From Blasia pusilla (taxonomy: Eukaryota), in the NCBI GenBank assembly GCA_050084515.1, contig CM114271.1:30380001-30444000 (forward strand): DNA of 64,000 nt, read 5' to 3'. Of this stretch, positions 1-57,300 are shown in pieces. Numbering within the stretch: the stretch's first letter is position 1; every line of letters begins with the position of its first letter. The notes beneath the pieces are model-generated. The model saw only the letters and a program-made list of their open reading frames with translations. It did not search any database and was not told where the DNA came from. The translations under genes were made by a program, and so were the position numbers.

Positions 1-2479
1 CATCACACTCTAGTGCAAACTTCTTGCTCGACGCGGTTACACATGCTCAGTGGCTAAGCGTCGAAGCTCCTCAATCAAGCCCCAAAGCGACACCTCTCCT
101 CCTTGGACTGATACGGCTACTATGACACTCCTCTCCATAGAAATGTCAAGAACAGGAGTATCCTCTGCGTGGACATGTCCCTCAATCAAATCACTAGGCC
201 AAGTGATGGCACTGCTAAATGCTGCTAAGGTCGCCATCTCTCCACGCCGTCGCTCGATCATTGCACCTGTGAATTGAATGGGTGATGACTTAAGGCGCCC
301 ATCACCTGACTGCCATCCTGGTCTGTAGGACGCTGACTATTCCCAATAATCAAGGGAAAACCCCATCGGGTATAAATATTGCTCCACCAACCAAGACGTC
401 GTAGGACTCTGCATCAGTCATTATTGCCTTGGCTTGCACCACGGACTGATTTGTAGGATGTCCCTGGCGAATCCTCACTATGACCTCCTGTCGGGTGATA
501 AATTGTGTGGTACTTGCTCCACCCAAGGATGTCTCTATCTGGAATGGATAACGCTCCACATTGGCTCTCCTCAAGCCTAATCCTCTTAATGACGCTTTCC
601 CCAACATCATGGGTTGTGCTCTTTAATCCAACAAGAGGCAGTGCGGACTAAAAGCTCTACCTCATGGACTCATCAACTGGAAGACCTCTCCCCGGTTATC
701 TAGCAAAAAAACACCAGGAGAAGCCATGGCACGCTCTATCGCGGGTCTAGCGGGCATTTCCGTCATCCTAGTAGTCGCAGCCTGCCATGAATCTTACGTG
801 GATAGTCCAAGCATCAGCTCTAAGGGCAGGTCCATCACCTCCTCTGCAATCACCTATGAACGTGATGCAAGAACTCCAACTCCACGCTCATATAGCCTAG
901 CGGCCAGCCTCGGTGGACGTACCTCCCAACGTCATAACATCGGAAGCAGAAAATAAAGGAGCTCGGTACACAATGGTGGTCGCCCCCAACAACGTGCTCG
1001 ACACATGCCCCTCCTGAGCATCAGCAATAGGAGTCGTCGCACTCGCTTCTCTCATCGCCCTCCATGCCTGCACACCAACAACATCACCAACTCTCGAGGA
1101 ACTCTGATAAGGACCCATCAATGGGGTTCTCATCGCCTAGGACAACGTGAAAGACTAAGGAAGCCTAGTCTGTTACTTGGCTTTCCCTCGCTATGGATCC
1201 AACTCTGCGGCTGCTCCATGCATCACAACTGCATTGGCCTCCATTTGGGCAACTACGCACATCTAACCAAGATCCTCTATATCTCTGGATGCTCCATATG
1301 ATGTCGATGCCACGGATCTGGCATCGGGTAACCTCAATTCCATAGCGGCAATCTGCTCCTCTAGATGCTGTATCCGAGTAGCCATCCCAGCCTCATGCCG
1401 AGCGTCTCCCTCAACACGTCTAGGTGGTGGGACTCTACCTCCTCCATGGGCAGATCCACCACCCTGTCGGGCAACTCCAGCTCCTTGTCCCCCAACGGGA
1501 CCACCTGTTGGACTATCTCTAGGCACACGTGGATCGGCTACTCGCTCTGGTGCCCTCTCTGGCCCTCGGTCCGGACGTAACTCAGGGTGTAAACTAAAAC
1601 ACGTGGCACATGTGTGACCATATCTCTGAAAATAGTCACACTGATAACCTCTTGGTGCATGTTGTGCGTATATATATCGCTACACAACATACATCGTTGG
1701 TCACATCTATACCACACAACATCGATCTTCTCCCCACACGGGTAGATCCAGACATGTATAAAAATTAACTCATACATATACATGGAGATCACACAACAAA
1801 AATAAAGAGTAGTAAAAACGGCACACTCGGCCTAAAACTCCACTCCTCAATCTACATCGGCATATCGAGCCTCGTCCACCCTACGTTATCAAGGAATCCG
1901 GACGCTAGCACCCTAGTCCTATCTCACACACATACAAGAGAGGTCCTCCAACGGCCCAACATAAGAAAGATGCCTTAGGAAAGCCATCTTCCTCTCTTAT
2001 ATAGGGTTGGGCTCTTCCTCTACAAATATCCATCCCCTTGGTAACGTGTACGCACAGGTTACGAGGGGCGGGTGACCTAGTCAACAAGTCACCCGGTTGT
2101 GAAAGACCTAAACAGGAAAGTTGTCAGAAACAATATTTTTGACACAATGGACCTATCCTCAACCTCATCTGATAGAGTGGGACAAAGTTACACTCAAGAT
2201 AGTCCGCTGGCTCCTACGTCCTATCCACGATAGATCTCGGCCTATTGGCTCCTTAGATGTGATAGTTGTCCTGCGTATACATATCGCTACACAACATACA
2301 TCGTTGGTCACATCTACACCACACAACACTGATCTTCCCCACATACGGGTAGATCCAGACATGTACATAAATCAACTCATACATATATATGGAGATCACA
2401 CAACCGCCCCCCTAGTTGGCACTTGGATTCCCCTAACTCCAGATAGAAAATATCACATCTCTTTGACATGACCTACTAC

Positions 2480-3890
2480 CCTGTACACATCTCGGACACA
2501 TCCATCGTCTCGTGGGAAGTACATCAGGAGGGGGATTCAGACATAAAATATGCCACCCTCAAGAACAACCATCACATACCAACATGGTGGCTGCATCCCT
2601 CTCAGATCCGCACAACATACACCTCAAGCCTGCATGTACCACCGCCAAGCTCGAATCCACTGTCTCATCTACGTTTGGAAGATGACATGGTGCACAATTG
2701 TGCACATGATCCTTCCAAACCATACCAACCCGTCCCTCCAACATGAGGACTCCGGTCGGTAATACCTTGCGCCCACGTAGGATCGTGTGCCCTGCAGTGA
2801 CATCTAGCGTCGTGGGTGCCGCCTGCTATAAATACACGTAATCTCCTAATCCCTGGACGATAACCTCCTCCACGAATGGTTGCATACCTCAATGTACTAA
2901 GCACACGATCTAGAAATACATAAGTTGTTCCTTCGCTTGCCTTGTCCGGTAGTGCCACCAACTCTATCCACTTGGAGAAATGCTCCACCATGACCAACAC
3001 GTACTTATGATGATGCCCCGTCAATGACAAAGGTCCCGCAAAGTCTAAATTCCACTGATAATCTAAACCCATAATCGGCAAAGGATGTAACTGCGGAGTG
3101 GAAGCATTGAAGGATGCTCGCACTGTGTCACATACCATACATCTGGCCACAAACTGTTGTACGCGAGTATGCATGCCGCGCCACCAATAGTGAATCTAGA
3201 GTAAGCTATAAGTATGCTTCACTCCAAAATATCCCAACTCCTCATGGGCATGTCGCACTACACGTGCTCCTTGGGAAGGATGAGGTACCACTCGTATCCT
3301 ACCATCTCTCCATACCCGCAAAATGTGAGTCTCCTCCCACCTGAACCTCATGGCTCTCTGTAGGATCCGATCCCACTCCCTAGCACTCATTGTGCTTGCT
3401 ATGACGCCAATGCGCAAGAACTCCACAACCTCCACGTCGTCATGGATATCACGACCACGTGTTGCCTCCTCACTGACATCCGTATCCAAAGACTCATCAT
3501 CCAACCCCACCACTGGAGTCATCACCTGCAACTGACCTACAATAGTCAACCAACAAAGATAAGCAGATGCATGCCAACCGGGCACCATCTCCTCATCATT
3601 TTCTCCGTGCCATCGAGCTCCTGTGTTGTCGCTCTGACTCGGACATGGGTTACAACTAAACCAATCCGCATCGTGGTTCAGCCAACCTGGCCTGTGAACG
3701 ACCTCAAACTCATACTCCTGTAGTAATAGAGCCTACCCAGCAAGCTTTCTCGTAAGCTTGTCGGACTCCATCAACCACCTCAACGGCTGATGATCAGTGA
3801 TAAGTGTGAAAGGGTTGCCAAATAAATAGCACCTGAAATGTGCCACGGCCCACAGTGCAGCCAAGCACTCTCCCTCGTAGGAGGTGTACT
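2480..3890 (-). pseudogene. E1 RNase H C-terminus, DDE integrase and C-terminal PHD finger (frameshifted)
   Basis: SYEGECLAALWAVAHFRCYLFG/TDHQPL (RH); HAHEELGYFG...CMVC (HHCC); LDFAGPL...VMVEHFSKW (integrase core); CMLCG...MLVCDGC (PHD). Confidence 0.88.
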
Positions 3891-4974
3891 TCACCTCTGC
3901 AATGTCCTCTGTGGCTCTTGAGCAATCAGAGGCGCTCGTGGTCCTCTCCCATGCTGTGTGCAGTCTCTTTGCCTATGGGCCCCTCCACATGTCCAACAAG
4001 ACAACATCGATCCCTGTTGGGCAACATATGTAGGTATGGGTCGTTGCCTCATAGGCTCACGGTACCCCGCCTGCTCTCTCGACACACTCGCCCGCTCCGG
4101 TGGTACTGGTGCTCGCTGTGGCACTTGTGGGGTCATCGTCGCTTGTGGACCAGTCAACTCTCGAGAAAATCCATCGGTCACTACGTGCTCCTCACTCATG
4201 TTAAGCTCAATACGTTCAGACAACTTAAAGACCACCTTCAATGTGGGCTTCGCTGTGTGAATCAACACCGTATCTTCGACTCTCCTCCGTAGTTCTCGGT
4301 CCAGAATCCTGTACCAATACTAGACTGATTGCGCCTCAATCACTCCATACGTAGCAATGATGAGCCTCCTCAGGTGCATGAATGCCTCTCACAATCTCAC
4401 TCGATCGTCGTTGAAAATCTTGTAGACTCTTCAGCTTGTCGGTGCGTACGCCCTGGTAGCTCTTCCCCAACTGTCAGAAGAACTCCACTATGGGACTAAA
4501 GTTGGGTGGCCCTCTACCACCAGAGGTCTCTGCCACATTGCCAGTCTCACTGCCCTCCTCTCCATCTAGTCTCCGGGCTGATGGTGTGGGTCTCTCTCCT
4601 CTCACGATCCCATCATATGCCTCGCGACCACTAGTGGACACATACCCTGGAGCCCAATACATCCTCCAGGCATGAATCTCTACTGAATATAGTGATCGAA
4701 ACTCCATGTAGTCATCCATTGGAGGACTCTCCAAGTGCTGGAACAACCCCTTCCATGCCATGAAAGGGTTGAATCGTATCGGGGTCCGTATCTCCTGGAA
4801 GTCGCACCACGTGTCAAACTTCTGGATAAAATCATCTAAGTTGATGGTGCCCACTGCACCTGAGGAACAACACATGCCCCGATGACCCATGTCGTCCATC
4901 TCTTGCCAAGTGATACTGCCTCCGTTTGATATCTCGTCACCAGACCCCATGTCTAGTGATGACGATCCAGCCAC
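3891..4974 (-). pseudogene. E1 gag (degenerate) with CCHC zinc knuckle
   Basis: ORFs 4474..4974 and 3891..4268 contain CWTCGGAHRQRDC and are nearly identical to the gag at 51276-52200. Confidence 0.8.
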
Positions 4975-7900
4975 GGATGGATGTCGAGGTAGCTCCTCAC
5001 TCGTAACCTCTCAGTATCTCAATCCACTCCGTGTCACACCACTACTACTGCTCGCACTACCCCGTTCTTCCGAACCGTGGAAGAATGCCGTGATGACAAC
5101 CCTGTCTCACCTGCTCAAGCACTCAGACTCACCAAGAGTCTCCTACACTCCTCACTAGCTCACCTATTCTAACGTCAATCCCGTGATGACACACTTGGCC
5201 TCACGCACACTCAACACTCGGGCTCACCATAAGCCTCCCAACTGACTCACCTAACCTAGCGACACTCTTGGATCATACATGCGACCCCTACTCGGCAACC
5301 ACCGTATATCCACCACATGGTACACATGAAAAGAGTCTACACTTGTCATCATCACTACAGCCACCTAGCACCAGCTACTACCTGATACCCAACACTCTCA
5401 ATCACACACGAGAAGTGCGGAAAAAGGGACTCGAATGGGTAACCTAATCATTCCCATCAACCTACTGCACCGTTAACATCCCCTCCTCCATGTAATATGA
5501 TGAGGTAAGGGATGGCCCCGTGGCCGACTCCGCGCCCCATCCGCCTCCGCCTAAAATATGCCCTAGGTGCCTATGACCTAACCAAACCTAGCTGACCTCC
5601 TCAAGGCGACTGCAACTCCTACATGCTCTTTCCTTACACACCCGCTTGCATACACTCGACGCCACACTGCATGCTACACTTGGCTGTTGTCCCCCGTCAA
5701 TCTGCAACAAAGAAATCTGCAAAAAATGGACAGCGCTTTCGCGCACAGCCTTCTGAACACAAAATGACCAACAAAAAATGCCAACCAACGTCTTCAGGGC
5801 TTCCTACCAATGCAACTCGCTTGCCTACCTGTAAACAACAAATTCCCACCAGCCCCTTGACATCTTTCTCATGTAAAAATAAAGAGTAGTAAAAATGGCA
5901 CACCCGGCCTAAAACTCCACTCCTCAATCTACATCGGTATATCAAGCCTCATCCACCCTACGCTATCAAGGAATCCAGACGCTAGCACCCTAGTCCTATC
6001 TCACACATATACAAGAGAGGTCCTCCAACGGCCCAACACGAGAAAGATGCCTTAGGAAAGCCATCTTCCTCTCTTATATAGGGTTGGGCTCTTCCCCTAC
6101 AAATATCCATCCCCTTGGTAACGTGTGCGCACAGGTTACGAGGGGCGGGTGACCTGGTCAACAAGTCACCCGGCTCTGAAAGGCCTAAACAGGAAAGTTG
6201 TCAGAAACAATGTTTCTGACACAATGGACCTATCCTCAACCTCATTCGACAGAGTGGAACAAAGTTACACTCAAGATAGTCCCCTGGCTCCTATGCCCTA
6301 TCCACGATAGATCTCGGCCTATTAACTACTCAGATGTGACATGCAGCACCATCTCCTCCGCCACGCTGAGGCACACGTCCATGACCCTAATGAGTGCAAT
6401 CGCGCTCATGATGGGCTCTACCACATGACCAAAAAGTAATCGTATGCCGCTGCTGCTAAGCCGCATATGAAAGCGCAGGTCTCTATGGCACGGCCTCCCG
6501 ATATCCTCCTTGAGCTCGTGGTGCCACAGTCAACCTATCTCCGAGTCCACGTTGCTGCACAGGTGGTGAAGACTATCATGTCAGCTCTCGCCCAAAACCC
6601 ATGGCGGCTACGCTCTCCTCCGCCATGTTGCGCTCAATATTCTCGGCGGTCCTAAAAACATCTCTCAACGTAGGGGAGGTGTTCATAAGAAGCACCCCCT
6701 CCCGCACTCATGTCCGCAGGGTCCGGTCCAGCATCACGTACCATGAGTGGATAGCTTGAGCCTCTGTCACCCCCTGAGTGACGTTCATCAACCGGCGCAA
6801 GCGAGTGTAAGCCTCAGGCAAACTCTTACCCGGGCGCCTCTGGAAGTCATGGATGTTCTGCAACTTCTCCGTCCGTACCCCCTGGTAGCTCGCCCTCAAC
6901 TCAACGAAGAACTCAACCACGGGGTTGAACTTGGGACGAACCCGACTAGATGGTGGAGCTTCTCCAGTGTGAGTGACCCCTCCTAAAACATCACTGGTGG
7001 AAGAGGAAGTAGCCTCTCTTGACTCCTCCTCCTCATCTGGGAACGGCTCCGTCCATGACACACACTGTGGGTCATAGTAGAGTCGCCATGCCTCAATCTC
7101 TTGGGCATATCCAAATCTCGCGAGTAATCCATCAATCACTCAAACTAAACATGCGGCACTCAATCTACACTCTCTCACTAAGACGTGTGTTGTGCGGAAA
7201 CAAGCAGCGTGGTGCGGAAAATCAACTGATCTATCGTCTTATCGACAAACCATCCTCAACCCTGGACATCCCACACAAGTCTATGTCCCCTAAACCCATA
7301 CATCATCGATTCTCTCAACATTAGCATAAAACCCAATATCCCAAATAACTTCCCAATACTCGGAAATCCTTCACACGTGCAGGGTAAGAAACCAGAATGG
7401 GTAAGTTGACAAGAATGTCGATGTCGCTCCTCGGCAACTGCAAATCTCGACCCCAACTTGATCGTGAAGACAACTCCTCCAATCAGCAAGTCGTACTCCT
7501 CTTGTACTAACGCTGCTCAAACCTCCTCAATGTGCGGTGTAGGTCCAACGGTCTGGTGCGGCACTAGCGGCACGGAACGGCTACAAACAGTACGTCACTT
7601 GGGAATGGGGTACGGCACTCGGCGGCATACCCTCCTCAATCAGCAATTCACAAGCTCCGCTCCTTAGTAAAGGAGCGGCTCCGCGATCGAGATGGTGCGG
7701 TGCGGCCACGATTGGCATGGCGCGGCAATCGGCAGCGCGTTGTGGCTATGGGCGTCACTTCAAGATACTCGATCGTCGTCAAGCGGCTTCCAATCATAAC
7801 ATGGTAGCATGAAATGAAAACTCAAACACCATAACCCGAGGTCACCTACCATCACTGATTGATGATGAAACTACGATGACGGTGGTGGCCAAAATAAAGT

Positions 7901-8799
7901 ACGTGGTGGCGGCGCAAGTCAGAGAATCAACGGTCGTTGTGGAAGACCTTCCACTCCGTAATAGCGGCAATGGCAACCAAGGGTGGACAACGCTCGATGG
8001 TGGACCATGGACCATTCACGGTGACGATTGACCGTTGATGATGATGGTTGACCGTCGATAGTGACTATGACGGCGACAGCCGCCGTCGGCACGGCGGGTG
8101 GTTTAGGGTTTGAACAATTTAACCCTAAAAATTACCTAGCAATGGCAGTTTTGCAAGATTAACCATAACTTCTTGCTTACAACTCCAAATTATGCACTGT
8201 CTATTGCACAACATGCACAACTTCATGACCTATGACGACATCATAAATTGTTTTCAATCAGGAATTCTTGTAAAAATTGACGGGGACTGTCGTAAAGCCC
8301 AACGTCTCTTTCTCCTACACAAAATTTGGCAGCACTTCCGCGCTAATTTCTCCCCAAAAAAAGTAAGACCTATGAGAACACAAATCAGCAAGCTACATGG
8401 TGCTCTCGAGAGCACTGGCATGAAGCAATCCTTCCCCATACTCAATTCCTATCGAAAATTGGCCAGCGCTTCCGCGTGCCAATCTCCCGTACAAAAAATC
8501 AGCAAAACAAAATAGCAAACTCGCACGGCTCTTGCTCCGGTGAGCACTCCCATGAGCCATGAAGTGGGGAACACGGTCCCCCAACCATGAAGCTCCCCCA
8601 TGAAGCTCTCTCACTCACTCATTCTTTCTTTATAGAATAAGATCCAATCTCTCTCACAACACCATAGTTCTCACATGTCTCTCTCAATGTCAAACCAAAC
8701 CCACTCTCCTAATGAGAGGCTTGGGTTACACTCATAAGGCAACGGACCATAGCTCCGCCGCCTCATGCCAAGAGGTTCAAAAAATAGAGAATAAGATCT

Positions 8800-8803
<4 letters not shown>

Positions 8804-8888
<85 letters not shown>
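8804..8888. repeat. (CT)n microsatellite inside the A repeat of E0
   Basis: Pure CT run; the paralogous copy at ~29745 has only a short GA run. Confidence 0.95.
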
Positions 8889-8890
<2 letters not shown>

Positions 8891-10289
8891 TGAGGTTTAC
8901 CCCTCCCCTCTATCATGACCATACATATTATGTCGTAGAGTATAGTGTGCTAGTAGAGGTCATACCTTATGTAGGGCCGCAGTGTCTAGGTAGAGATGCG
9001 ATTTCATACATAGGGTTGGGGTTACTCAGTTGAGGGTGAGTTTTCTAGTAGGGCCCGCTCTTAGGTTGGAGGATATAAGATGGAGTGCACTCAAAGAACA
9101 GTCAATTCTTTGAGTTGAGCCTGTTGCGTTGGGAGTTAGCCTTGGTAGTGAGTAGAGCTCTTGGCTATGGTGTTTCCGCAAGCTTCGACCTAGATTCTCC
9201 CATCGTGGAGTGGGATTGTATGTGATTCTACACGTGTTTTATGATAGTAGGTCTTTCACAAATTTCACTCAAAGAACTGGAGTCGATCGATGGTAGCTTC
9301 GATTGTGGATCAGTAGGATCTTGTTAGGGCTGATTTTGTACTCGGCCGTGGATGTTCGTGGCTTGTGGCCTATGTTGGAGGTTTCAATCTGGTGTGTGAT
9401 TGGTTGGGAAAGAAGCGCCTTGTTGAGAGCTTTGCAATGTGCTTTAGATCGCCGGATTTCGTCAAGGGAGTTGGAAGTTATCAAGGATTGAAGATTCTGG
9501 TTCGTGTTTGACGGTTTTCTGATGCGGAGAGCTTGGAGTGCGGAAGCTCTGTTGAAGTTCATCCAGATCGGGTGAGAGGTTCCTGTTGCTTCTTGTATTG
9601 TGATCTCATGTGAAGCTATCTGCTTGAGTGTGTGGAGCGTTGCGGATTTCTGCGTGCATGGCGGGCGGAAGCGCCGGCGGATTTGCGATCTCGGAGGTGT
9701 ATGGACAGCAAGTTTGTCTGATTTTTAGCTCGGAGTACAGAGCTTGGTTGTAGCTGATTTTTTGTGGAGAGATAGCTATGGTGGTCAATTGAATTTTGGT
9801 TGAAATAGATTCAATTTTGGTCAAGGATTTGTGAAGTAATTGGTGATCAAAATTTTGTGGACTAGCTCAAGGTCTAGCTATGGTGGACTGCGGATCGGAG
9901 GGGCTGGTTGGTTTGTGACTCGTTCATTGTTGGAGACGCCTATCCCATTGGGGGCACCCTGGGTGGGCCTCTCTCCATAGTGAAGCATGGCGAAGCGTGG
10001 CGAACGGGGCGAGACTTTTTGGAGGGTAATGTTTATGCTATGGATTCTCCAATGCATGAGGAGGTAGAGGAGGTCCCTATTTCTGCAGCAGTGGCATCCT
10101 CATCGTTGGATGTGCCACTTTGGAGTTCAGGCGGTGCACAACGGCAAGAGGCTGATTGCCTAGTGCAGGAGGCTGGGTGTGAGGCTGTTATACCTCACGA
10201 GGAAGAGGAGGCCCCACGGCGGACTCCTACTTCTGGTCCACTTGGGTTATCCCCTTTGGATACTACACCCATTGTATGGCAGTATCCGC

Positions 10290-11260
10290 CGGAGGGCATT
10301 TGTGTGTTAGATCTCTTTGGTGGGATTAGCACTGGTTTGGCTACAGTGTTGCAGGCCGGTATTCTTGTGCGGAGATACGTGTATGTGGAGCGAGATGAGA
10401 CGGCCCAGAGAGTCTCATCCCGACATATCGGTCAGTTGATGCGGAGATATCCTGAGTTGTTGCCGCCATTAGCTATTCGTGGGTACCAGCGTGCTTTGCC
10501 GTCACACATTGCATTGTTAGGGGCGCAGGACCTTGAGAGGGTTGGTCTTGTGGATTTGGTGATTGTTGAATGGCCATGTCAGGGTCATACACGTGCTGGT
10601 CGTGGTGAGGGATTACACGACCCTAGGTCTCGATTGTTTTGGGAGATGTTACGGGTGTTACGACATCTTCAAGTTCATCAGGCACGTGCTCTAGCTTACA
10701 TTCTGGAGAATGTTCCATTGTTGGGTGACACTCGGACCCAGATGATGGCGAGTGTTCATGAGGTGCGGTCTTGGATTGGACCAACGGTGTTGTTGGATGC
10801 AGCGCGAGTTGGCTCACGTGCACATCGTCCACGCTTGTGGTGGACAAACTTGTTGCCTAGATAGGTTCTACGTCGAGCATATGATGTAGTGCAGCGGGAT
10901 CCTTGCCTTACAGTAGATAGTATCTTGGATACTGGGCGACTTTCTCATGTGGTGAGGGTTATTGATCGGTCACCCATGGCGGTGGTAAACCGTGTGGGCC
11001 AGCCTAGGATGGCACTACCCACATTTGTGAGTTTTCCCTCGTCACATGCATACAGGGAAGGTGGTCCCGGGCTTGTATGGGATTCTCATGTACGACAGTT
11101 GGTGGAGCCTAACGCTGATGAGAGACAGCGTGCGATGGGATTTGCTACTGGTGTGACAGCGGTTGCTTCCATTTCTAAGGCTTCACGACGTCATATGTTG
11201 GGTTAGGCCATGGACCTGAATTGTTTGACTTGGATTTTGAGTCTTGGTATGGCCGAGCAG
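10290..11260 (+). pseudogene. DNMT3-like C5 cytosine DNA methyltransferase domain within the E2 pol region
   Basis: Motif I VLDLFGGIST; motif IV DLVIVEWPCQG; motif VI ILENV; motif VIII AHRPRLWWTNL; motifs IX/X ERQRAMGF...RRHMLG*AMDL. In-frame TAG stops at 10862 and 11204. Confidence 0.9.
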
Positions 11261-11497
11261 CGTCGACTTTGGACTATGTATGTGGGTCTTCCACCCCTTG
11301 TAATGAGCTCGATGGCTACCGGGACGGTAGAGGCATCGGTTGGGGGCGAGGAGAGTAGTATTTTGCATCCTTGGAGTAAATGAGATGTAATGGTTGGGCA
11401 TGTGAAGTTGGTTGCTCATGCTGGTGGTGGAGTTATTTGCTCAGATGATGGTGTAGCTAAGGGTGTACCATCTTGTGAGGGGGTTGCGTAGTAGCCA

Positions 11498-12846
11498 ATG
11501 GCATCGTCCTCTCCCTCTAGTGTGCCAGTAGAGGAGACTTGGGAGCCATTACTTAGGCCCAAGCTTACGGGAGGTGAGAAACGATGCTTCACACAGTTCC
11601 TACGTGCTTATAGGAGTTGTTTTGCCTTTAGCATGAAAGAGTTGGGTTCTCTGGTTGGACCCGGTATACGGATTCATTTGGCTAGTGATACGCCAATCTT
11701 CCGTCGTCCCCACCGATATAGTGATATGGAGAGGGACCTGATTCAGAGTAGGACGTTGGACCTTTTGGAGGCTGGATTAGTGGAGTTGTCGGCAGGAAAG
11801 TGTAAGTTCTTCCATGAGGATGTTGAGTACTTGGGTCATGTGATTTATCCAGGTGGTTTGGGAGTTCAGCAAGCAAAGATGGAGGCTATTGCCCTTATTC
11901 CGTGTCCGGTAGATGTGAGTAGAGTTCGGGCATTCATGGGATTGGCGAACTACTATCGAAGGTATGTGAAGGGATTTAGTGCTATGGCAAAGCCTTTGAA
12001 CCAATTGCTGAAATCAGATCAAGAGTGGCAGTGGGGAGATGATCAGGAGAGAGCTTTTGTGGAGCTTAAGGCCCAATTGGTGGCGGCGTCTATCTTGAGG
12101 AGACCTATCAGAGGGTGCCAATTTCAGTTACAGATTGATTGGAGTAGGTTGGGACCTGGAGCGGTGTTGACACAACATGATGATGAGCACATGGAGTTTG
12201 TGGTGGCCTATGCAAGTCGTTCGAATAATGCAGCGGAGTCGCGCTATAGTTCATATGAGGGAGAGTGCTTGGCAGTAGTGTGGGCTGTGGCACACTTTAG
12301 GTGTTACTTGTTTGGTACAGAGATGTGGATGAGAGTGTGTTCTCATCGGGCAGAGCTCTTTCGGAGAGTTATGCCAACAGCCTTTGAGAATCTTGCCATT
12401 GCTCAACACAGGGATACGTTGCGATATGCAACCATTCGGGATGGAGGTTATCGACCATCTATTCATAGGTTCCATGTGGGGAACTATGTCTATTTGCAGC
12501 AGATTGCACCGACAACGTTGGATGTGACGGCAGGCCGCACTATTTTACGAGTGCGCGAGGTGTTAGCTTCTGGAGTTCTCATATTGGAGGGTCGTGATGG
12601 AGTTATTTGGAAGGACCATGTGCGTAATGGTGCGTCATGTCATCTTCCAAATGTGGATGGTACTGTTGACCCAAGCTTAGCCATGATACGTGCTAGCTTG
12701 AGGTGCATGTTGTGTGGAGTGCTAGCTAACGCTTGGCCCGTATGTTGGTGTGTGATCGGTGTTCTAGGGGTTGGCACATGATGTGTTTGACTCCACGTAT
12801 GGATTTTGTTCCTACTGGAAGGTGGGTTTGTCCTCGATGTACTTAG
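11498..12846 (+). pseudogene. E2 partial RT, RNase H, integrase C-terminus and PHD finger (two internal deletions)
   Basis: PIFRRP...LLEAGLVE fused directly to KCKFF...EYLGH (RT core lost); VRAFMGLANYYRR; VAYASRS...SYEGECLAVVWAV; integrase core missing. PHD CMLC...CDRC...WHMMC...WVCPRC* at 12704-12846 (one frameshift). Confidence 0.88.
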
Positions 12847-15800
12847 GAGGGGTAGATGACTTGATCTTTGCTTGATATGGATTACAAATGTGCGACTAAC
12901 GATGGGGCAACCTAGCACCCGGCCTTCTCATTCGTGCACCCAAGAAGGTGTATAGCATGTAGTAGATGTATAGGGCTACAGGAGTTAGAGGACCTAAACT
13001 TGATTAGGGGGCGAGTTGTGGTACACTTGTGTTTGTGGATGCTCTTGTCTATGTTATGTATGTATGTGAGTATGGTATGTCAGCGATGTATGTTGTATGA
13101 CGATGTGGATTCGCACGACAAGTGTCATGACCACACAGATTATGTCGTAGAGTATAGTGTGCTAGTAGAGGCCATACCTTATATAGGGCCCCAGTGTCTA
13201 GGTAGAGATGCGATTTCATACATAGGGTTGGGGTTTACTCAGTTGAGGGTGAGTTTTCCAGTAGGGCCCGCTCTTAGGTTGGAGGATATAAGGTGGAGTG
13301 CACTCAAAGAACAGTCAGTTCTTTGAGTTGAGCCTGTTGCGTTGGGAGTTAGCCTTGGTAGTGAGTAGAGCTCTTGGCTATGGTGTTTCCCGCAAGCTTC
13401 GACCTAGATTCTCCCATCGTGTAGTGGGTTTGGCTCGATTGTATGTGATTCTATACGTGTTTTATGACAATAGGTCTTTCACGGATTTCACTTGTGGTAC
13501 ACTTGTGTTTGTGGATGCTCTCGTCTATGTTATGTATGTATGTGAGTATGGTATATCAACGATGTATGTTGTATGACGATGTGGATTCGCACGACACCTC
13601 TCCCAAGCTCTCTCCATGGTAACCTATGCTCCCAAGTCACCTCCTTGGCTCTTGACCTGATGTAGGACAATCAAAGGCCATTTACTAAAATAGAAAGTCA
13701 ATCATATACTCAAAATGATACTCACCTAAAATAGTAAGTTCTTTAATATGGCTCCAGATAAGCCAAAACAAAGGGGAAACCTACTCTCTCAGGTTTCCCT
13801 GGGCCTCAGTAGGTCATCCTTAACCTCTTGAGTCTGTCCTCCACTACTCGCGAAGGCGCTCTACTAGATCTCACTGATCTATCCTAAAAGACGTGACATC
13901 CATGTAACGAAGTTACAAAAGGATGCAAAGAGGATATTTCCTTAATCCGTATGTGGCACGGACACTGACTAGTAGCTACTAATGCATAGCCTATGTTGGT
14001 GCACAAGACCAATCATGGCGAATTTTTTTAATTTTTTTGTTACCCACGTTACAAAAAACTTTTCATGCTGCCTATTGCCTTGTTTTAATTTAGGAGATGT
14101 TTGTAAATCAAGAAACTGCTCTCCCACAATATTATACTAGTGTATAGCCTATGTACGAGACCCATCATGATTAAAAAAGTAAACAAAAAAATCATTCTTA
14201 CACCACTAGCATGTGGCAATTAAAAAAAAATGTGTTTACAAATTAAGAGAACTATTCCAACAAAAAAATATCTACACTAATATTTTAGAACCATGTCTTG
14301 TACTGCTTGCTTGAGCAATTGACACTTGGATATTTTGACCAATGCCAACCTGCCACATGTCCCATATATCTTAGGGTTACTCAATAGTCATTTTTGGGGA
14401 TAGTTCAAGTTAGTGGGTCACATTTTAAAGATTTTAGAGTAATAGGGCGTCTCATATAGAGGGATGTAAGTCTTGCAATGTCTTTTGGGTGTTTGACTAT
14501 AAAACATGGACAACTTCCGTCTATGCCAAGGGATATTTGATTTTATTAGATGTCGTACTATGCATATTGCATGCCCACCTCTTCCACCACCTCGCATTCT
14601 AGCCATGGACACGACATCCATGATTATGACCTAAAGTTTGAGACGTCCTAATGATGGGTAATCTACTCATGATTGCTTGTGGCATCTACTAGTAAATTAG
14701 TATAGCAAACTAAGATTAGAATCTACCAAAATTTTCTTTATATATGCATTCTACAAAATAGGCACCAGGAATAATAAGGAATCTTAGACTGTGTTGTGAG
14801 TGTCAAACATCAAGATCCCTTTTTCTTCTTTCTATTTTTTGCATTTGTAGTGGAGGGGAGGTGGTCCTTCCTATTTACTTCGGGGCAAGTGAAACATTAC
14901 AACATCTTACAAATTAAAAAACTCTTTGACCTAAGAATGGGCCACATTGAGACCTAAGAGACTCACCCTAATCTTATGGAATCTCCCGTAGCCTACTTAG
15001 AACCATCTATTTCATTGACCGAGGTCGAGGTTAAACACTCCCCCTCCCAATTGCTCACACATGCCAATTTAATTGAGAGTAATCCATATTATAGTGGGTG
15101 ATCTTACTTGCATAATAAAACAAAATATCAACAAGATACTATTTTGTCACTTAAGGTGGCATGTTGGTAGGAAAATGATATCATTGGAGGAAGTAATAAG
15201 ATATCCAGTAATGGAGAACTAATGAACGGGAGGAGTGGGGTTCAAGAAAAACCTCAACTACTCAATATTTTTTTAAATAATTTTGTGGAAAACCTTCTTT
15301 TTAAACTTAACATGGGCATGTTAACAAGTTAAGTCGAGAGGGGCTTAAACGTACTAGGAAAAGAAAAAGAAGGGGAAACAATTTCTCCCTCGGCAACCCA
15401 ACTAGACCTTTGTGTCGAAAGGTAATTTTAGGGATGCTCGGGCGTCCTAGAGAGGAAGAAGAAAGTAAATTTTAATAGAAATTGGGACGCAAAACTCATC
15501 GAGATACAAAGGAGGGGGGTGTAGAGAGGCAAAAAAACCCACGGGCATATATCGACCTCGGAGAAACAGAAAAATATTTCTCCTTTAACGACCAAAATCA
15601 CCAACAATAAACAACAACAACACTTATAGAATTATGGCTGTTACTAAGCGGACCTCTAGCATTTAACGCCAATGGCCACTTCGTAGTAGCCATAGCTCGT
15701 TACCCATCGGAAGTACAAAAGAGGGGGACTCAAAGAGTCAAAACCTGAAGGCCACAACAAGACCAGAAAAGGAAGAAAGGGCATTCCCCCAGACGAAACT

Positions 15801-22240: not shown

Positions 22241-22976
22241 ATTTTCCGAACCTCCAGGCATACATCTTGTTGTGTTTCCGAACTCTGTTATGAAAACTCA
22301 AAAACCCTAATCGAGGGTTTCATATTCATGGTTATGGGTGTATCAAAATACTTTATTTTTACAAGGCGCAGAGTAACTACTCGGAAATGGGTGCCTTGGG
22401 GGTTAAGGCTAATCCCTATTGAACCTGAGGAGTCCCCTATGGACCTTAACTTGATTATCCCCATTGGTTGCGTGACCGAGCAATTTCTCTTTCTTAATGT
22501 ACAACCGTGAGAAAAAGTAATGATATTACACATAAATTCAATTTTTTGCATTTAGCACGTGAAAATAAAAAAGACACTCGTTCACTAAAAGAATATAGAT
22601 GATGACCCCATCGAAAAATTCACCCCCACGAAGTCCGGGATCCGCGTGTCCCATTCGGCGGAAAATGGTCAGGATTCAGGAAGAGCTCCGTGATATCCGT
22701 CGGTCGTTCGTCAGTCGTCTGGACTGCAGGAGAAGGCTGGGAGGATGTGGTGGATGCAGCTCCGCGATTCAGTTCTTGTGAGTGTCAATTGTAACAGGAG
22801 CTGGAAATGTTTCGCAATTCGACCAGAAAGACAATAATCCCGAGGAGCAGTTGACCGTGCGGACTGATTCGGGAGAGGAGAAGGTTAATTCGGCGGCGTT
22901 TTTTTTTGCAGCGTTGAAGAATTGGAGCTGAGGTGATGGTCGTGAATTGAGGGGCGGGGATATTCGGTTCAGCGAA

Positions 22977-25900
22977 ATGGAGAACGCAAACGCGGATCGT
23001 TCGTCTGCGCACTGGAGCCGCCGGGGATTTCCAATGTCAACAAGCTCCATGCTTCTCGCAGTGTGCATCGCTTCGGTGCTACTGGTCCTCGTTTATCTCC
23101 GTTCTCGTTCCGATGGGATTCGCCTTCCGCCGGGACCTCGCGCTTGGCCCATAATAGGGCACCTCCATTTGCTGGGAAAGTTGCCCCATCGATCTTTAGC
23201 CAACCTTGCGATGAAGTACGGGCCGCTCATGTCCTTGCGACTAGGAAATGTCTATGCGGTGATCGTTTCGTCTCCTGATATGGCGCGGGAGATCCTCAAG
23301 AATCAGGACCAGGTTTTCGCCTCGCGTCCCTCGACCAGTATCGCCGAGGTCTTCGCCCACGGTAGACAGGACATAGTGTGGGCACCATACGGCCCACAGT
23401 GGCGCTTCTTTCGAAAGGTCTGCACCCTGGAGCTTTTCACAGCGAAGCGCATCGGACACTTTCAGGTGTGTACTCCGTTCTTTCTATACCAAGCACCGCA
23501 TCTCTAGGGCCATGCGAACTGCACTGCGTACCCACATAAATCACTACTTGCATCCACGGAATGAATCAGAGGGCAACTTCCTCCTGCGTGCTCCCAAAGA
23601 AGCCTTCAGCACACCATCCGTAGGTTTGCCCATGAATGAATGTGTGATAAATTATTAACTCGGGTGGATCGGTCATCCGTGACAGCACTCAGTAAAGGAG
23701 GAGATTTTGGCCACGGTGCAGCGTATACTCGCACTGGGACATGGAGGGAAGCCCGTAGAGTTGGATGAGAAGCTGTTGGAAATGTCTAGTAACAGTATAT
23801 CGCGGATTCTCTTCGGCAAATCCTTCTCGACACGCGAGAGCCTGGGAGAGGCCAAGGAGTTCTGGGCGCTGTTCAAGGAAACCTTCGAAGTGGGAGCAAC
23901 CCTCATTCCCGCGGATGTGATTCCCTTTTTGAAAGGTCTAGACGTCGGTGGTCATGAGAAGCGACTACGCAAGTTGACAGAAAAGTTCGACGCATTTTTC
24001 GCGTCCATCATAGCCGAGCACCGAGGAAGAGCGGAATCCGAACGCAGCGGGAAGGCAGAAGACTTCGTGGATGTTCTGTTGACTATCAGACACGACAAGG
24101 ATGGATCTCTCCTCACGGATTCTCAGATTATCGCCATTCTCGGGGTGCGTAAATCCATCCAAACCGAGTTTGATTAGATCAATTCTTTCCTATCGTACTG
24201 GACAGCAAGTACCATCGTCGCCTTCGATCACGTGTGTTAGAGAGCCACAGAATGACACGTGACGTCCTTTCTAACTCGCTTTGCGCGTGACCAATGTGGG
24301 GGGTTACGAGTAAAGTAATGCCGGCGGTTCAAATTGGAAATTTTCGATTTATATTAAGCTTTTTATCAAAAAGACATTGGGATAAAAAATAAAATATTAC
24401 TTTTTATAACATCTTAGTAACATGTTAGAACTTTTAGAATCACGGGTTTTATTCGTCTACGATTTTAAAAATATAAATTCATCTAATTTTAACTTTTAAA
24501 AAAATAATTAAATAATAAATTAATTCACACGTGATATTTTGGGATTGAAATTTTAATTTTAATGGAAAAATAAAATATTTTCATTAATTAAATTTAATTA
24601 TTTAGTGAATTTAACTTTGGTTTAAGAATGAAAGGGTGAGATTAGATGCTTTTCAAACTTTAATGAAAGATAGAAATTATTTAAAATATTTGGGTATTAT
24701 TTAAAAGAGAAAATTTCAATTTCAAGATTTGAAAACTAGAGATAAAATATTTAAAGAAAAATAATTATAAAGGACTTCAAATCGATTTTCGTGTGTTAAT
24801 ACGGGCATGCCAACTACTACTATTAACTAGCACAAGAAAATGAGACCCGTGTCTTAATCCAAAAGATACAGTGGTAAGGGAGGGCCTTCAAGTTCAGGCC
24901 TTAGGGTGGGGAATATGGAGGGGAACTTGTGATGTGCTTTCACGGGTCCTAACTAGTATGAGATACTACTGTTTTCAAGTGGAAATTTTTGATATATGAT
25001 CTTGTCTAAATCAAGAAATAATGAAAAAGAAAAGAGGAAAGAAAATATGCAATGGGTCAAAAATCAGTCAAAAATGATGAAAGTAAATTCAAAGAATGAT
25101 GAACGGTGTTTCAAAACAAATTTTCGGAAGGAGTGATTCTATATTTTCACTGAAAAATGGGGGGTAGAAAATTGATTTATTTTCCTAATTAAATTTAAAA
25201 AATACAGAAAAAAAATCAAAAACAAATAGAATGTGTACATTAATACTCTTTGAACCGAAATCTGACCTTGAAATCTTTAAGTCTAGAAGGCCTGTTATAA
25301 GGTTGTTAATATTTTATGACCATCTATCTTCTTGTTATAAGAGTGTATACTTGAAGTGGATAAAGTTTGACTAGTATTTGTGTGCATACTATATGCGTCG
25401 ACCATATTTATGATCTATCTAGTCAACATTGAATTTCGTTTCTTCTTTTTGGAAGAACAGAATCGAATGCCAAACTTTGAATTTTCCCTGCTTCAGATCT
25501 GCTAAATAGATACAAATACAAAGGAGAATCTGCCTGATGTTTTTGGCTGGTGAGTCAAAAATTGAATTGGAAATCTGCAAATTCTTCCGGCTAGCTCAAC
25601 GTGCGTTACCCCAATTCTCCCAAGACATTAGGACCAATAACGTTCTTCCAATAAGAGGATAAAACAATGGAGAAAGTGATATTTTCTTTCATGTTCTTAT
25701 TCTTAAATTTGTTCTCTCTTTATTGAAATTGTTTATTATGTGCTTTTGCTGTTAAACTCATTTTCCTTTTCCTATTAAAAAATAAAATTGATGGGAAAAT
25801 CTGATCCGCATGCATCCTTTTGATACAGACACCGATTTCTTTTTCTTTTCTTGTGCCCGAAATTCTACTCGATCTTCCTTCGGTCTATCCAAAGTTCACT

Positions 25901-26645
25901 TCATCTTTCCAAGACTTTCCTTTATCCAAAGTTCAATTGTCTTGAGGGAAACCTCTTTTTTTCCGCGAGTAATGTATATGTTGTCGGCGTGCAGGATATG
26001 CTGTTAGCTGGTACGGATACCTCCGCTAATCAAGTGGCTTGGACTACTTCGGAGCTCCTTCGACGACCCGAATATCTCCGGAAAGTCCAGGCCGAACTCG
26101 ACGCCGTGGTGGGGAACGAAAGATTGGTAGAGGAGTCGGACCTTACTCGACTCAAATACCTGCAAGCGGTGGTCAAAGAATCGTTCCGACTCCATCCCGT
26201 GGCTCCGTTGCTTCTGCCGCATGAATCGATCATGGCCACCATCGTGGCAGGTTACCATATCCCGGCAAAGACCAGAGTTTTGGTGAACGCCTACGCGATT
26301 CAGAGGGATCCTGCAGTGTGGAAGGATCCGCTAACCTTCGATCCAGACAGGTTTCTCAGAAGCTCCATAGATTTGAAAGGCCAGGATTTTGAGCTCTTGG
26401 CGTTCGGATCGGGTCGGCGGGTCTGCCCGGGGATGAACTTGGGCTTGTTAACCATACAATTGACTTGCGCTTTGATCCTCCAGACCTGTGAAGTTTCTCT
26501 CCCCGATGGGATGAATCCAGAGGACGTCGACATGGGCGAGGGTTTCGGGCTAACCATGCCTAGAGCTCAACAACTCCGAATCGTGGCCTCTCCACGCATG
26601 CCGACATCACTCTCCGATGTGCCCAATATCAAGATTTCCCCTTAG
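22977..26645 (+). CDS. Cytochrome P450, CYP71 clan (A-type), ~532 aa; exons 22977-23465, 23686-24144, 25995-26645
   Basis: TM anchor followed by LPPGP-WPIIGHL; WRFFRK; AGTDTS (I-helix); ESFR (ExxR); PDRF; heme motif FGSGRRVCPG. Phase-0 GT-AG introns. The start could alternatively be the ATG at 23033. Confidence 0.95.
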
Positions 26646-28749: not shown

Positions 28750-28836
28750 AGAGGTATTACGCTAGCTAAGCTTGTAATGATTGTGGCTCCCCAAAAGCTC
28801 ATTTGACCCCAAGGTAATATGTATCCTATAAAAGCT
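28750..28836 (-). pseudogene. cob: Mitochondrial cytochrome b fragment (NUMT)
   Basis: [28 protein letters not shown]. Confidence 0.9.
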
Positions 28837-28849
28837 GGTAGAGTACCAC

Positions 28850-29841
28850 AATGGTATGGTTTGGAAAGATCTTGTGCATAACTATGCGTCATGTCACCTT
28901 CCCAACATTGACGGTATAATTCATCCGAGCTTAGAAATAGTTTGTGTATGCTTGAGATATGTATTGTGTGGTTTTTCCCTTGGTGCAACCATTGTGCTTG
29001 TGTGTGATGGATATTCGAGAGGGTGGCATATGGCATGTTTAACGTTACCTCTCACTAGGATTCCTCAGGGACGATGGATGTGTCCCACATGTACATAGAG
29101 TAGATACTAGGTAGTTATGCATTCCAACTTGTATTTGTGATATGGATGACAAGAAGACGATTAATGATGGGGCCACATAAGCACCTGACCTTTTGGCTCT
29201 TCGTGTCCTAGAGATGTATGTCATAGTAGGTAGGAATAGATGGTTAATATTTGGAGTTAGAGGGACCTAATCACGAGCTAGGGGGGAAATTGGAGATATT
29301 TTGGTACTCTATTGTCTCGATGACATTGTTTGGATGTCATAAGTTGAGCATGGGATCCTGTGTGTTTATGTATTTATTTGGTAACAATGATGTATATTGA
29401 ATAGCAATGTGTATGCGCACAATCACTGTCACATATTTTAGAATATATCGATAAGTCTATAGTAGAGTGTCTTCAAGGATAGTGGAGGATAGTCTCAAGA
29501 GTTTGAGGATGACCTGTTGAGGCCACAAGTAACGTGAGAGAGCAGGTTTCCCCTTCATTTCGGCTCATTTGGAGTCATGTACAGAAACTTACTATTTAGA
29601 GTAAGTCACCATTTTGAGTGTAGCTGACTTCCCAATTTGGAAAGTGGCCCTTGACCTCCTACAGCAGGTCAAGAGCCAAGGAGGTGACCTACGAGCATAT
29701 CTTACCGGGGAGAGAGTTTGAGAGAGGGAAGGGGACATACCAAAGGAGAGAGAGCTTTGTAACTCATTCTCTCTTTGTTGAACCTCTTGGCATGAGGCGG
29801 TGGTGCTATGGTTCTTCTTGTATGTGGATTTGGTTTGACAT
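28850..29841 (+). mobile_element. 3' remnant E3 of the same Gypsy group: integrase C-terminus, PHD, PPT, B1, start of A2
   Basis: [19 protein letters not shown]...[13 protein letters not shown]...WMCPTCT*; PPT AGGGGGGAAA at ~29280; B ~29290-29425; A from 29427 (TGTCACAT) is homologous to the 5' end of E0. Confidence 0.8.
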
Positions 29842-31796: not shown

Positions 31797-34700
31797 TTAA
31801 ATCTCATCATCCTCTTCAGAGCTCTCTTCTTCAATGAACACTTCTCTAGACACAACAATGGTAGGGACATCATTACAATCTATATTTTCTGTCACCACCT
31901 CTTCGGCGGTGAGCTCTATCGCTCCAAGGGAGTTTGCTAGTAGCACCCTTCCTGATAGAGTTTCAATCTGATCAAGGCCGACACAATGTCCTTCATCAAG
32001 GTTTCCACCGTTATATATATCATAAATAACTCGACGAGATCTAGCCTCTTTTCTAAGAACAACCTTCCATCCACTTCCTTCGTTAGCATCTCCAAAGAAT
32101 ACTTGTTCAACTTGAGATGGGAACACAAAGGGTTGGTGGTTGATAGGTTCACAAGATCTAAGGTTTACAAGTAGGAATCCTTCACTGTATCTCTTCATGG
32201 ATGGCATGTGTGAATTCCAATTTGCCCTCACCCACCTCCCTTGCATTAAAATTACAGGTTGATGAACAATCCCATAATCAAGTGCAATTATATCGACCCA
32301 AACTCCCACGTATGAATAAGCAGAGTTCAGATCATCATTTTCCTCATCCAAAAGTACAACTCTGATTCCACTATCATAGGTGGATTACGCATTATATCCA
32401 CCCTCTCCCTCTACCCTATAGTGATTTCCATAAGCCTTCATAGACTTGTATGATAGAACTTTTGGTAGCGGAGGAACTAACAAGGCCAATAGCTCTTCAT
32501 CCACCTTCCCATCTTTTTCCCTAGCATCTTGAAGGATAGCTGGTTGAATCCACTCTAAAAAAGAAATTGATGCATTCTCAGCCTCATGTTTCTTGGTAGA
32601 AAAAAACATAATGACTAAGGAATAAGGTGATTTGGATCACAAAACAAACATGTAAGGTTTGCTAGATTAGGTTCACCATTTACATAATGAGAATTCAATG
32701 ACACTAGTTGGAAATTACGTGCGCCACAAAACCATGGACTCCATATTATGTAAGACATAGTGGTGTGCTAACATACTCATTTCTCTTGAAAATTAGCAAT
32801 GACGTCCTGCACCTTCCAACTCCTCTCCTACGATCCCTTCTTCTTCGCCATCATCCCATATTCGGGTCCTCACATCCTCAAATCTTCTCATATACTCAAT
32901 CACAAATCCCAAAGCCTCATCTTTGATATAACCCTCTGCCATGCAGCCCTCTGGGCGAGCTTTAGATCTGATGTATTTTTTCAGAGTACCCATTTATCTT
33001 TCCATTGGGTACATCCATCCGCAAGCTATGGGCCCACAAATATCCAATTCTTGGATCACGTGGATAAGAAGATGTGTCATCACATCAAAAAAGGATGGTG
33101 GAAAATGCATCTCCAACAGGCATAGGATTATCGCTACGTCTTTATGTAGTTCTTCGTAAGATGCAAGATCATACACTTTACAACACAACAACCTAAAAGT
33201 CTTGCGTAGAAGCATAACAGTTCTATGGATTGGATCCTTCATCAGCCCACGAAGGGCAAACGGAAGGATTTGGTGAATCAGCACATGATAGTCATGTGAC
33301 TTCATGCTACCTAATTTCTTTTTAACCACGTGCTTCTTCAATTCGGCACTATAACCTATGGGCACTTTCAAGGACTCAATCCTACCCAGAAAATGGGACA
33401 TTTTAGGAGGCAATAAAACGTAATCACACTAAGGTTTCAGTCGTGTTTCTTTACTTGGATGGGGTCGTAACCACAAGTGAGGTCGAATTCCACGAGCCTC
33501 CATATCTCTTCTAACCTTCACCATGATGTTGGATACTTTCCAATATGGCAAATCAAACAAAATACTTCGCCGCTTCATCCCCGTCCGCTTCATGGATCAA
33601 TAGAGCATCCTCTCGACCACCTTCATCATCATATGTTTTTTTCTCCTCCGCCCATCTAAGAATTTGATCAGCTGTAATTTGAGGAGGCGCTAGTCTAGTT
33701 TCTCCTTCACCATTGAATTGGGAGTCATAAGCTCATCCTCTCCAAACATGGTCTATTGGAAAATGTCTTCGATGGCAACCAAATATGGGCTTCCCACATT
33801 GTTTGGAGAAATCTGAATCCACATAAGATCCACATCCTATACACGCGAGTTTCCCACCATGGCTTTGTCTTGAGATTGTGCCATATGATGGGTAATCATT
33901 TATAGTCCACAATATCATGGCTCTCAATTTGAACCCCGAAAACCCATGTGGTCTACAAACATCCTGGAATTCAATTCCATTCCACAACTCCCTAAACTCT
34001 TCTACCAATGGGGCCAAGAAGGTGTTGATATTTTCTCCATTCACACTCTCCTTGCCAAGTATTATAAGAGACAACATGACAAAAAACTTCTTGGTTTGAA
34101 GCCAAGGTGGAAAATTTTAATTAACCAATAGTATTGGCCATATTGACCATGAGCTAGCCTTATCAGAGTATGGATTGACACCTTCAAATGCCAAACCAAA
34201 CCGACAATTCCTACTTGCTACAGCAAAGTCTGGGTACAAAAAATCAATATGATTCCAAGCCTTGCTTTCTCCTGCATGCCTCACCAAGCCATCCTTACTC
34301 TTGTTTTTAGAAGACCAGCTCAATAACTCTAACAAAGCCCTATACCTATACATTCGCCGCATCTTAGGGATTATAGGGAAGTGTCTCAATACCTTGTTTG
34401 GTACTAAAGACTTCCCGACTTGCTTGAACCTAGCATTCCCATACTTTGGGCAATTTTCTGCACCTTCCAATTCCCCTCGAAATAGAACACACCCTTTAGG
34501 GCAGGCATGCATTGAGTTGTAGCTCTAACCAAGTTTACAAATGAGTTTATTTGCTGCATAGTATGATGGTGGTACATGATTGTCAGATGGGAGTACCATC
34601 TTACGTAGGAGTTTCAATATCTCATTGATGACAATATTGGGGACCCCATGGGTAGCACCAACATTGAAAGGAGCATAACAAATGCACTCTTTGCTCCTGG

Positions 34701-35081
34701 GAAGAGTGGATTGCATGCTGCAGCAAGTTCATGAAAATCTGATGGGATATTGGGATCATTGGTTTCATTGAGGTTAACATTCTCAGTCCCACTTTCATCA
34801 AAAACCATTTCATCGTCATGGAGGTGATCATATTCTCTAAACATGTCATTCAGCATCAGAGGAACATGGACATCAACATCCAAATTAGGAATTTGTTGAT
34901 GTGAAAATCTAAGTGTAAGAGTTGATTGCATAATAAGCTCACGTTGCTCCTTCTCATTGCTCTCTTGTTTTATAAGCCACTCCTCATCTGAAGAGTCCCA
35001 CTCTTCCCTACTTTTTGGGACCCGACAAAGATGAGATCTTCCATTTTTTCTCAGATGGTCATCTACCTTCCCTAGTCCCAA
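31797..35081 (-). pseudogene. CACTA/En-Spm TNP2-like transposase, frameshifted
   Basis: HACPKGCVLFR; VLRHFPIIP; SWSIWPILLVN; LWTINDYP; MKSHDYHVL; FFDVMTHLLIH; WMYPMER; PEGCMAEGY; PFVFPSQVEQVFF. Termini not found. Confidence 0.92.

Positions 35082-54643: not shown

Positions 54644-54736
<93 letters not shown>
54644..54736. repeat. (CT)n microsatellite, followed by a ~125-bp tandem duplication (54760-55020)
   Basis: Direct reading of the sequence. Confidence 0.95.

Positions 54737-54739
<3 letters not shown>

Positions 54740-56644: not shown

Positions 56645-57300
<656 letters not shown>

Follow-up and report, generated by a model that had tools for sequence, protein, structure and literature searches.

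A probable Ty3/gypsy retroelement with split direct repeats and integrase-type borders in the bryophyte Blasia pusilla

In textbook long terminal repeat (LTR) retrotransposons, reverse transcription restores a pair of equal LTRs and creates the ends on which integrase acts. Split direct repeats are regarded as a hallmark of elements that a tyrosine recombinase moves. How, then, could an element with split repeats come to have the borders of an integrase product? This question is raised by E1, a retroelement at positions 1660-6341 (sense strand minus) of a 64,000-nucleotide stretch of the Blasia pusilla genome, hereafter the window (GenBank assembly GCA_050084515.1, contig CM114271.1, positions 30,380,001 to 30,444,000 of the forward strand). 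We find that E1 is very probably a defective Ty3/gypsy element of a streptophyte and green-algal lineage with split repeats, and that a DDE integrase placed it in the gag gene of an older element, E0.

Read in the sense direction, E1 has the order A (467 bp), internal region, polypurine tract (PPT), B (138 bp), 2 bp, A, B. The 5' repeat A (5875-6341, minus strand, as are all E1 features) starts with TGTCA, contains a TATA box at 6073-6080 and has no B ahead of it. At the other end the PPT, a G-run at 2405-2415, abuts the internal B (2267-2404), which is followed by a 2-bp spacer (2265-2266), the 3' repeat A (1798-2264) and the terminal B (1660-1797), which directly abuts the last base of A and ends in ACA. 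Alignment of the A copies (5875-6341 against 1798-2264(6)) gave 437 identical positions of 469 (93.2%), and that of the B copies 125 of 138 (90.6%). With TGTCA at its start and ACA at its finish, the element has ends of the TG..CA type, and a 4-bp target-site duplication (TSD), TGCA, flanks it on both sides (upstream copy in sense, 6342-6345; downstream copy, 1656-1659). Two equal LTRs were found neither in E1 nor in a second element, E2; in both, A stands alone on the left and B-A-B on the right, so that the repeats form the split direct arrangement A1..B1-A2-B2, with only two B copies per element.

The borders of E1 could be read directly from sequencing data. In DNA run X17, 478 reads (259 + 219, with 212 start places) carried the joint 1655->6342, which skips 4686 bases and has four letters that fit either side; six RNA reads carried it as well. 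These reads represent E0 paralogs that never held E1, and the empty site is therefore visible to the base: the inserted unit begins with the first base of A, closes with the last base of B and is accompanied by the 4-bp duplication. Both the layout and the TSD given in the original prediction are thereby upheld. It had also stated that removal of E1 restores the gag gene of E0. After excision the frame (DGAA/PRGYQCDY at the junction) is open for 145 amino acids, which is no better than the other offsets (146-194 amino acids). Frame restoration is thus a poor test of the borders, weak on its own; it is the E1-free paralogs that confirm them.

Two further elements in the window have a readable left end. 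The A of E0 begins at 13898, where the plus-strand flank is TCCA, and ends at 8687. E4 (49539-52196, plus strand) is a copy of the E1 family that retains gag up to 52196 and is then lost; its A lies at 49539-50003 and is flanked by TCTA. As predicted, both begin with the first base of A, and the sequence ahead of them, which holds no B, is unrelated. All four readable left ends (E0, E1, E2 and E4) accordingly start at A, and B stands neither before nor after the 5' A. The adjacency of A and B at the 3' end gives a first impression of mis-set borders around an ordinary LTR of A+B or B+A at both ends. Nothing beyond that impression favors such a reading; it is refuted by the left ends and the empty-site reads, is at odds with the presence of two B copies per element, and is almost certainly wrong.

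The same layout occurs in E2 (8911-13596, plus strand), which belongs to another family. Its A copies (8911-9268 and 13123-13491) are 93% identical, its B copies (13016-13120 and 13492-13596) agree at 102 of 105 positions, its PPT lies at 13007-13015, and a spacer at 13121-13122 separates the internal B from the following A. The ends read T(G>A)TCA..ACA. CCTC is duplicated on both sides (8907-8910 and 13597-13600), and when E2 is excised together with one CCTC, the A of E0, in which it lies, becomes colinear with the A of E3. This confirms the prediction that the arrangement recurs with a different A and B.

E3 is a 5'-truncated fragment (28796-29841, plus strand) that begins with the end of a PHD finger. 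It had been proposed as a third family with this architecture. The PPT (29280-29289), B (29290-29424), 2-bp spacer (29425-29426) and A (29427-29841) are indeed present in that order; a second B is absent, and the full layout is therefore not displayed by this copy. E3 stops, to the base, where the 5' A of E0 ends, and unrelated sequence comes next. It resembles a captured partial complementary DNA (cDNA) or a copy of an ordinary form. A long (TC)n run at 8797-8890 lies in the A of E0, where E3 has a short GA run, which indicates that the expansion postdates the divergence of the two.

An ordinary element whose LTR is A would account for the end of E3. B would then be a 3' untranslated stretch, and the terminal B a functionless duplication acquired after insertion. 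The A of the E0/E3 family, which starts with TGTCA and ends with TGACA like a normal LTR, fits this idea. However, TGCA and CCTC flank the start of A and the end of B, not the end of A, and the terminal B is absent from the 478 empty-site reads, as is the remainder of E1. The A of E1 also lacks CA at its end. Furthermore, the same accident would be needed in two unrelated families, and elements of Klebsormidium share the layout. We therefore regard this explanation as very improbable and, for E1 and E2, as largely refuted.

The families themselves are separate, as judged from their repeats. Outside the ends, the similarity of A and B among E1, E2 and E3 is 0.48-0.56, compared with 0.48-0.53 for shuffled sequences. 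The predicted independence of the families thus holds for the bodies of the repeats and not for their edges, where three features are shared. The last 38 nt of B are identical at 26-30 of 38 positions between families, while the remainder of B is at shuffle level; the first 12 nt of A agree at 5-8 positions; and a PPT-type G-run abuts the first base of B in three of three families. About 760 DNA reads with loose ends at 2303/2306 agree with no more of B than its last ~37 nt (block at 2267-2306) and diverge beyond them, so this block is common to more families than the window holds. Each of the three internal junctions (E1, E2 and E3) likewise has a spacer of 2 bp that separates B from the following A. 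RNA reads of an E0-like family run from the end of B through another 2-nt spacer into the start of A, which indicates that the junction is transcribed, and RNA loose ends were found at 2255 and 2267 in E1. At the terminal joint of E1 and E2, the last base of A is set directly onto the first base of B, and 27 DNA reads from paralogs carry the same joint as E1. With two unrelated families, four of four left ends and a match to KnitGypsy-Dnmt3 of Klebsormidium nitens, discussed below, the claim that A..B-A-B is a lineage trait and no one-off rearrangement is the right reading.

The coding remnants assign E1 to the Ty3/gypsy elements. Open reading frame (ORF) translation revealed gag remnants in broken frames at 3891-5010, with a motif resembling a Cys-His zinc knuckle (seen by eye, unscored), and this region has 88.7% DNA identity to 50794-52196 of E4. 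RNase H, the integrase zinc-binding domain and the first catalytic D are encoded at 2896-3912 (tblastn to residues 840-1218 of the related protein P0011, E 1e-70), and the C-terminal part of the integrase and a PHD finger at 2487-2895. Between them 154 residues are deleted, the match skipping from residue 1218 of P0011 to 1373. The original prediction that E1 keeps the HHCC motif and the DDE core needs correction: E1 retains part of the HHCC zinc domain and the first D, and the second D and the E, two of the three catalytic residues, are gone. In Pfam searches Integrase_H2C2 (24.6 bits) and rve (23.4 bits) were both under their curated cut-offs. Protease and reverse transcriptase (RT), upstream of RNase H, are missing, and no methyltransferase match was obtained in E1, which has lost the region where one would lie. 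Judged from its sequence, E1 is a defective, internally deleted copy. At 2896, 764 DNA reads diverge, so most paralogs retain the missing piece of integrase.

Since E1 has no protease, RT or full integrase, its layout is tied to an integrase only through its relatives. E2 encodes RT-RNaseH and a C5-cytosine DNA methyltransferase within pol (10298-11260, plus strand; PF00145, 30.1 bits for the E2 ORF) and lacks an integrase core; pieces of E1 and E2 together are colinear with P0011 (1516 residues). Pfam identified DNA_methylase, RVT_1, RNase H, Integrase_H2C2, rve and PHD in P0011, and the same domains except PHD in P0064 of Klebsormidium, which is 44% identical to the E2 ORF. Both proteins have the order RVT_1, RT_RNaseH, Integrase_H2C2, rve, with an intact HHCC and rve integrase. 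Among 120 listed relatives most carry PF00665 and PF00628 and some PF00145; the hosts listed are Klebsormidium, Closterium, Chara, Marchantia, Calypogeia, Sphagnum, Chlamydomonas eustigma and Haematococcus. The pol order of the lineage is thus RT-RNaseH-integrase-PHD finger, with a C5-DNA methyltransferase in some members. The nearest of the listed matches to the retroelement proteins of the window come from Marchantia polymorpha (68-80%), Calypogeia (78%) and Sphagnum (76%). Among viral contigs, the search with P0011 found no relative, and a search with an alignment gave seven pattern matches, none of which was confirmed.

Elements of the DIRS order generally lack a TSD, and 5 bp is the usual TSD length in plants. 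The duplications of E1 and E2 are 4 bp long and, with the TG..CA ends, are an integrase-type hallmark. For comparison, the TSD section of a survey of plant retroelements handled TSD sequences as 5-mers (PMC6317226). A true DIRS or Ngaro element moved by a tyrosine recombinase would have the same repeat layout as E1. No tyrosine recombinase family was found by Pfam in nine ORFs of E0, E1 and E2, in P0011 or in P0064, and integrase remnants, a TSD and TG..CA ends are present instead. A DIRS/Ngaro identity is refuted for practical purposes.

If an integrase inserted these elements, where did reverse transcription begin? A candidate self-priming primer binding site abuts the 5' A of E1 at 5861-5874, and its complement lies within A at 6036-6049. 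The latter segment starts 31 nt after the TATA box and would be the 5' end of the transcript, serving as its own primer. The complementarity in E1 amounts to 10 nt of Watson-Crick pairs, or 16 nt when G-U pairs are included. It is better preserved in E4, where the candidate site (50004-50017, plus strand) has 14 nt of Watson-Crick complementarity, a length reached by none of 200 shuffles. In E2 the site after the 5' A is complementary to the element's own 3' A copy over 13 nt, again reached by none of 200 shuffles. The complementary stretches of E4 and E2 begin ~30 nt after a TATA box. When the leader RNA of E4 was folded, the minimum-energy and centroid structures alike paired its predicted first 14 nt with the site. 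Ty3/gypsy LTR elements have a PPT before the 3' repeat and a primer binding site after the 5' repeat, and both are represented here, the latter by the candidate site of the self-priming type (E1/E4, E2). Self-priming is described for Tf1/sushi elements, and the plant survey predicts it in the Tcn1 clade, which is found in mosses and club-mosses (PMC6317226).

A primer site of the transfer RNA (tRNA) type was not recognized after the 5' A in a comparison by eye with tRNA 3' ends. TGGT occurs 22-23 nt past the 5' A in three families and was considered as a tRNA primer site; the bases that come next differ and the tRNA match is at most 5-7 nt, so this candidate was rejected.

These start points suggest how the two kinds of ends are related. 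With the PPT abutting B, plus-strand DNA should begin at the first base of B, and with a site of 13-14 nt after the 5' A, in an arrangement of the Tf1 type, minus-strand DNA should begin at the last base of A. Together the two starts define a reverse-transcription unit with B-A at each end. For integration, the left end would instead be the first base of A and the right end the last base of B. At the internal B/2 bp/A junction two integration ends would then stand head to head, and at the terminal A/B junction two reverse-transcription ends would be joined with no base between them. An inserted copy would be a circular permutation of an ordinary cDNA, in which one B has been shifted from the left end to the right. 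On this reading of the parts, reverse transcription and integration probably use different ends, and as a whole we favor it, with moderate confidence, as the best explanation of the locus.

The route from one set of ends to the other is speculative. We tentatively propose that the ends of the finished cDNA join into a circle with two B-A units and that integrase reopens one of them. It would cut the B/2 bp/A site of that unit with a 2-nt stagger and thereby create two ready-processed ends; cuts after CA on both strands would leave recessed 3' ends with 2-nt overhangs, of the kind normally used in strand transfer. E3 is consistent with a partial minus-strand product, for it stops at the A end, the expected start of a self-primed minus strand.

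Several observations weigh against the separation of ends or against the circle. A circle has two identical B/A sites and should give inserts of the form A-B-A..B equally often, yet all four left ends run from A into the leader. The constancy of the A/B joint in the 27 paralog reads fits template copying better than fresh end-joining. As to priming, the E2 site pairs over only 10 nt with the element's own, mutated 5' A copy, and the fold skips this pairing, while the complementarity in E0 is only 8 nt, which was matched by 300 of 300 shuffles. Three RNA runs gave sense-strand reads from which neither a transcript start nor a poly(A) site could be placed; the self-primer and the RNA 3' end are therefore deduced from the DNA. 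E1 and E2 are also old, with repeats 91-97% alike, and defective. Finally, at the A end of the E0 family (8687) 1523 DNA reads continue with 0.84 agreement into sequence that is leader-like and not B. About 0.6 would be expected with equal numbers of 5' and 3' A; the value exceeds what both models predict and is unexplained.

The main rival is a templated repair as in DIRS elements, without a circle. Here the RNA would run from inside the 5' A to inside the terminal B, and the internal B/A junction would template both missing ends, as has been proposed for the internal complementary region in DIRS-1 and for PAT/Ngaro split repeats. A linear A..B-A-B cDNA would form and be inserted directly by integrase. 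This scheme explains the constant A/B joint and the single type of left end, and the transcription of the internal junction agrees with it. The layout is moreover the same as that of the DIRS-order split repeats described in two papers (PMC5890265, PMC7192593). Against it, a minus-strand primer site was not found downstream of B, and the leading RNA reads listed revealed no poly(A) site within B. The PPT at B and the self-priming site at the 5' A point to ordinary starts, and E3 finishes at the end of A rather than that of B. We consider templated repair rather unlikely, and separate ends for reverse transcription and integration remain our preferred explanation.

What the locus contributes is a split layout joined, in two unrelated families of a land plant, to integrase signatures that are proved to the base. 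From the sequence, start sites can be predicted for both DNA strands, and they differ from the inserted ends. How a DIRS-type layout restores its ends, and whether a circle is needed, thereby becomes testable with a well understood enzyme. LTR finders that expect equal repeats will mis-set the borders of such elements or file them as DIRS. A more far-reaching proposal, which we hold to be doubtful, is that this lineage has separated the ends made by reverse transcription from those used by integrase, with end-joined DNA (circular or longer than unit length) as an obligatory intermediate that integrase opens at an internal head-to-head site with a 2-bp stagger. If true, retroelements would have a third means of end reconstruction, intermediate between those of ordinary LTR elements and of the tyrosine-recombinase DIRS elements, and the split-repeat layout would be independent of the recombinase.

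The window as a whole is rich in transposons. A further element has its gag start near 60771 and runs off the window, with a methyltransferase domain in pol at 62376-63003 (plus strand); the region 60771-64000 is packed with short ATGACTAC-like repeats, and its 5' border could not be set. The captured methyltransferases of this element and of E2 are of the kind known from Klebsormidium, here in a bryophyte host. Isolated integrase and RT fragments of other Gypsy elements, with unrecognizable ends, lie at 37897-39123 and 47692-48527 (both minus strand); no PPT-B-A 3' end was found for the first of these, the integrase fragment. A CACTA-type DNA transposon has left remnants at 31797-35087 (minus strand; Transposase_21, 58.5 bits; DUF4218, 65.5 bits). 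The region 42409-44493 (minus strand) matches zf-C17orf113, DUF4371 (below cut-off) and, weakly and below cut-off, a hAT dimerization domain, which suggests a hAT-like transposase or a gene of such origin. A cytochrome P450 gene with several exons occupies 22932-26645 (plus strand; PF00067, 209 bits for the last exon), and its best named relatives are from Riccia (63% identity), Marchantia paleacea (60%), Calypogeia (58%) and Sphagnum (56%). Besides the run in E0, long (TC)n runs lie at 54644-54741 and 57077-57190. Tandem repeat arrays lie at 52553-54100 (period ~347 bp) and 45617-46164 (period ~142 bp; both plus strand), the former array starting ~360 bp beyond the point where homology between E4 and E1 is lost.

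Known systems share different parts of this architecture. Gypsy-7a_cRei of Chlamydomonas reinhardtii, in the description given by Craig et al. (2022, PMC9940879), is a Gypsy element with a PHD finger and "LTR subparts", whose left LTR is short of the final 8 bp of the right one. It resembles E1 and E2 in the PHD finger and in a right end that is longer than the left; its asymmetry is just 8 bp, and a link to the split layout, compared by description, is a lead only. Tf1/sushi elements and the plant Tcn1 chromoviruses have a primer site complementary to the start of their own transcript, as proposed here for E1/E4 and E2, and differ in having two equal LTRs and a chromodomain where the Blasia elements have split repeats and a PHD finger. 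PAT-like and Ngaro elements of the DIRS order have the same repeat order, A1..B1-A2-B2, in which the internal, joined-end copy is thought to restore the ends that the transcript lacks, as outlined in a passage on these elements (PMC7192593). They differ from E1 and E2 in their own tyrosine recombinase, in the supposed integration from a circle and in lacking the 4-bp duplication and the TG..CA ends.

The closest counterpart is KnitGypsy-Dnmt3 of Klebsormidium nitens, which combines Gypsy domains with DIRS-like repeats according to the legend of Fig. 4c in de Mendoza et al. (2018, Nat Commun 9:1341, PMC5890265). Fig. 1e of that paper gives the DIRS arrangement (SymbioDIRS) as A-coding region-B-A-B, and the KnitGypsy repeats are described there as in a DIRS retrotransposon. 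In our literature searches, a Gypsy element with the split-repeat layout and the name KnitGypsy were found in this paper alone, and none was found for bryophytes; the main-text passages on the element do not specify how long the duplication is, what the end sequences and primer sites are or how the layout arises (PMC5890265). E1 and E2 share the Gypsy domains with DIRS-type repeats, and E2 and the element at 60771-64000 also the Dnmt in pol. The host is an alga in one case and a bryophyte in the other, and a methyltransferase match is absent in E1. As the layout is already in print for a charophyte, E1 and E2 are new members of this group, in a land plant, and the details that they add to it are the PPT at B, the candidate self-priming site at A, the head-to-head junction and the conserved end of B.

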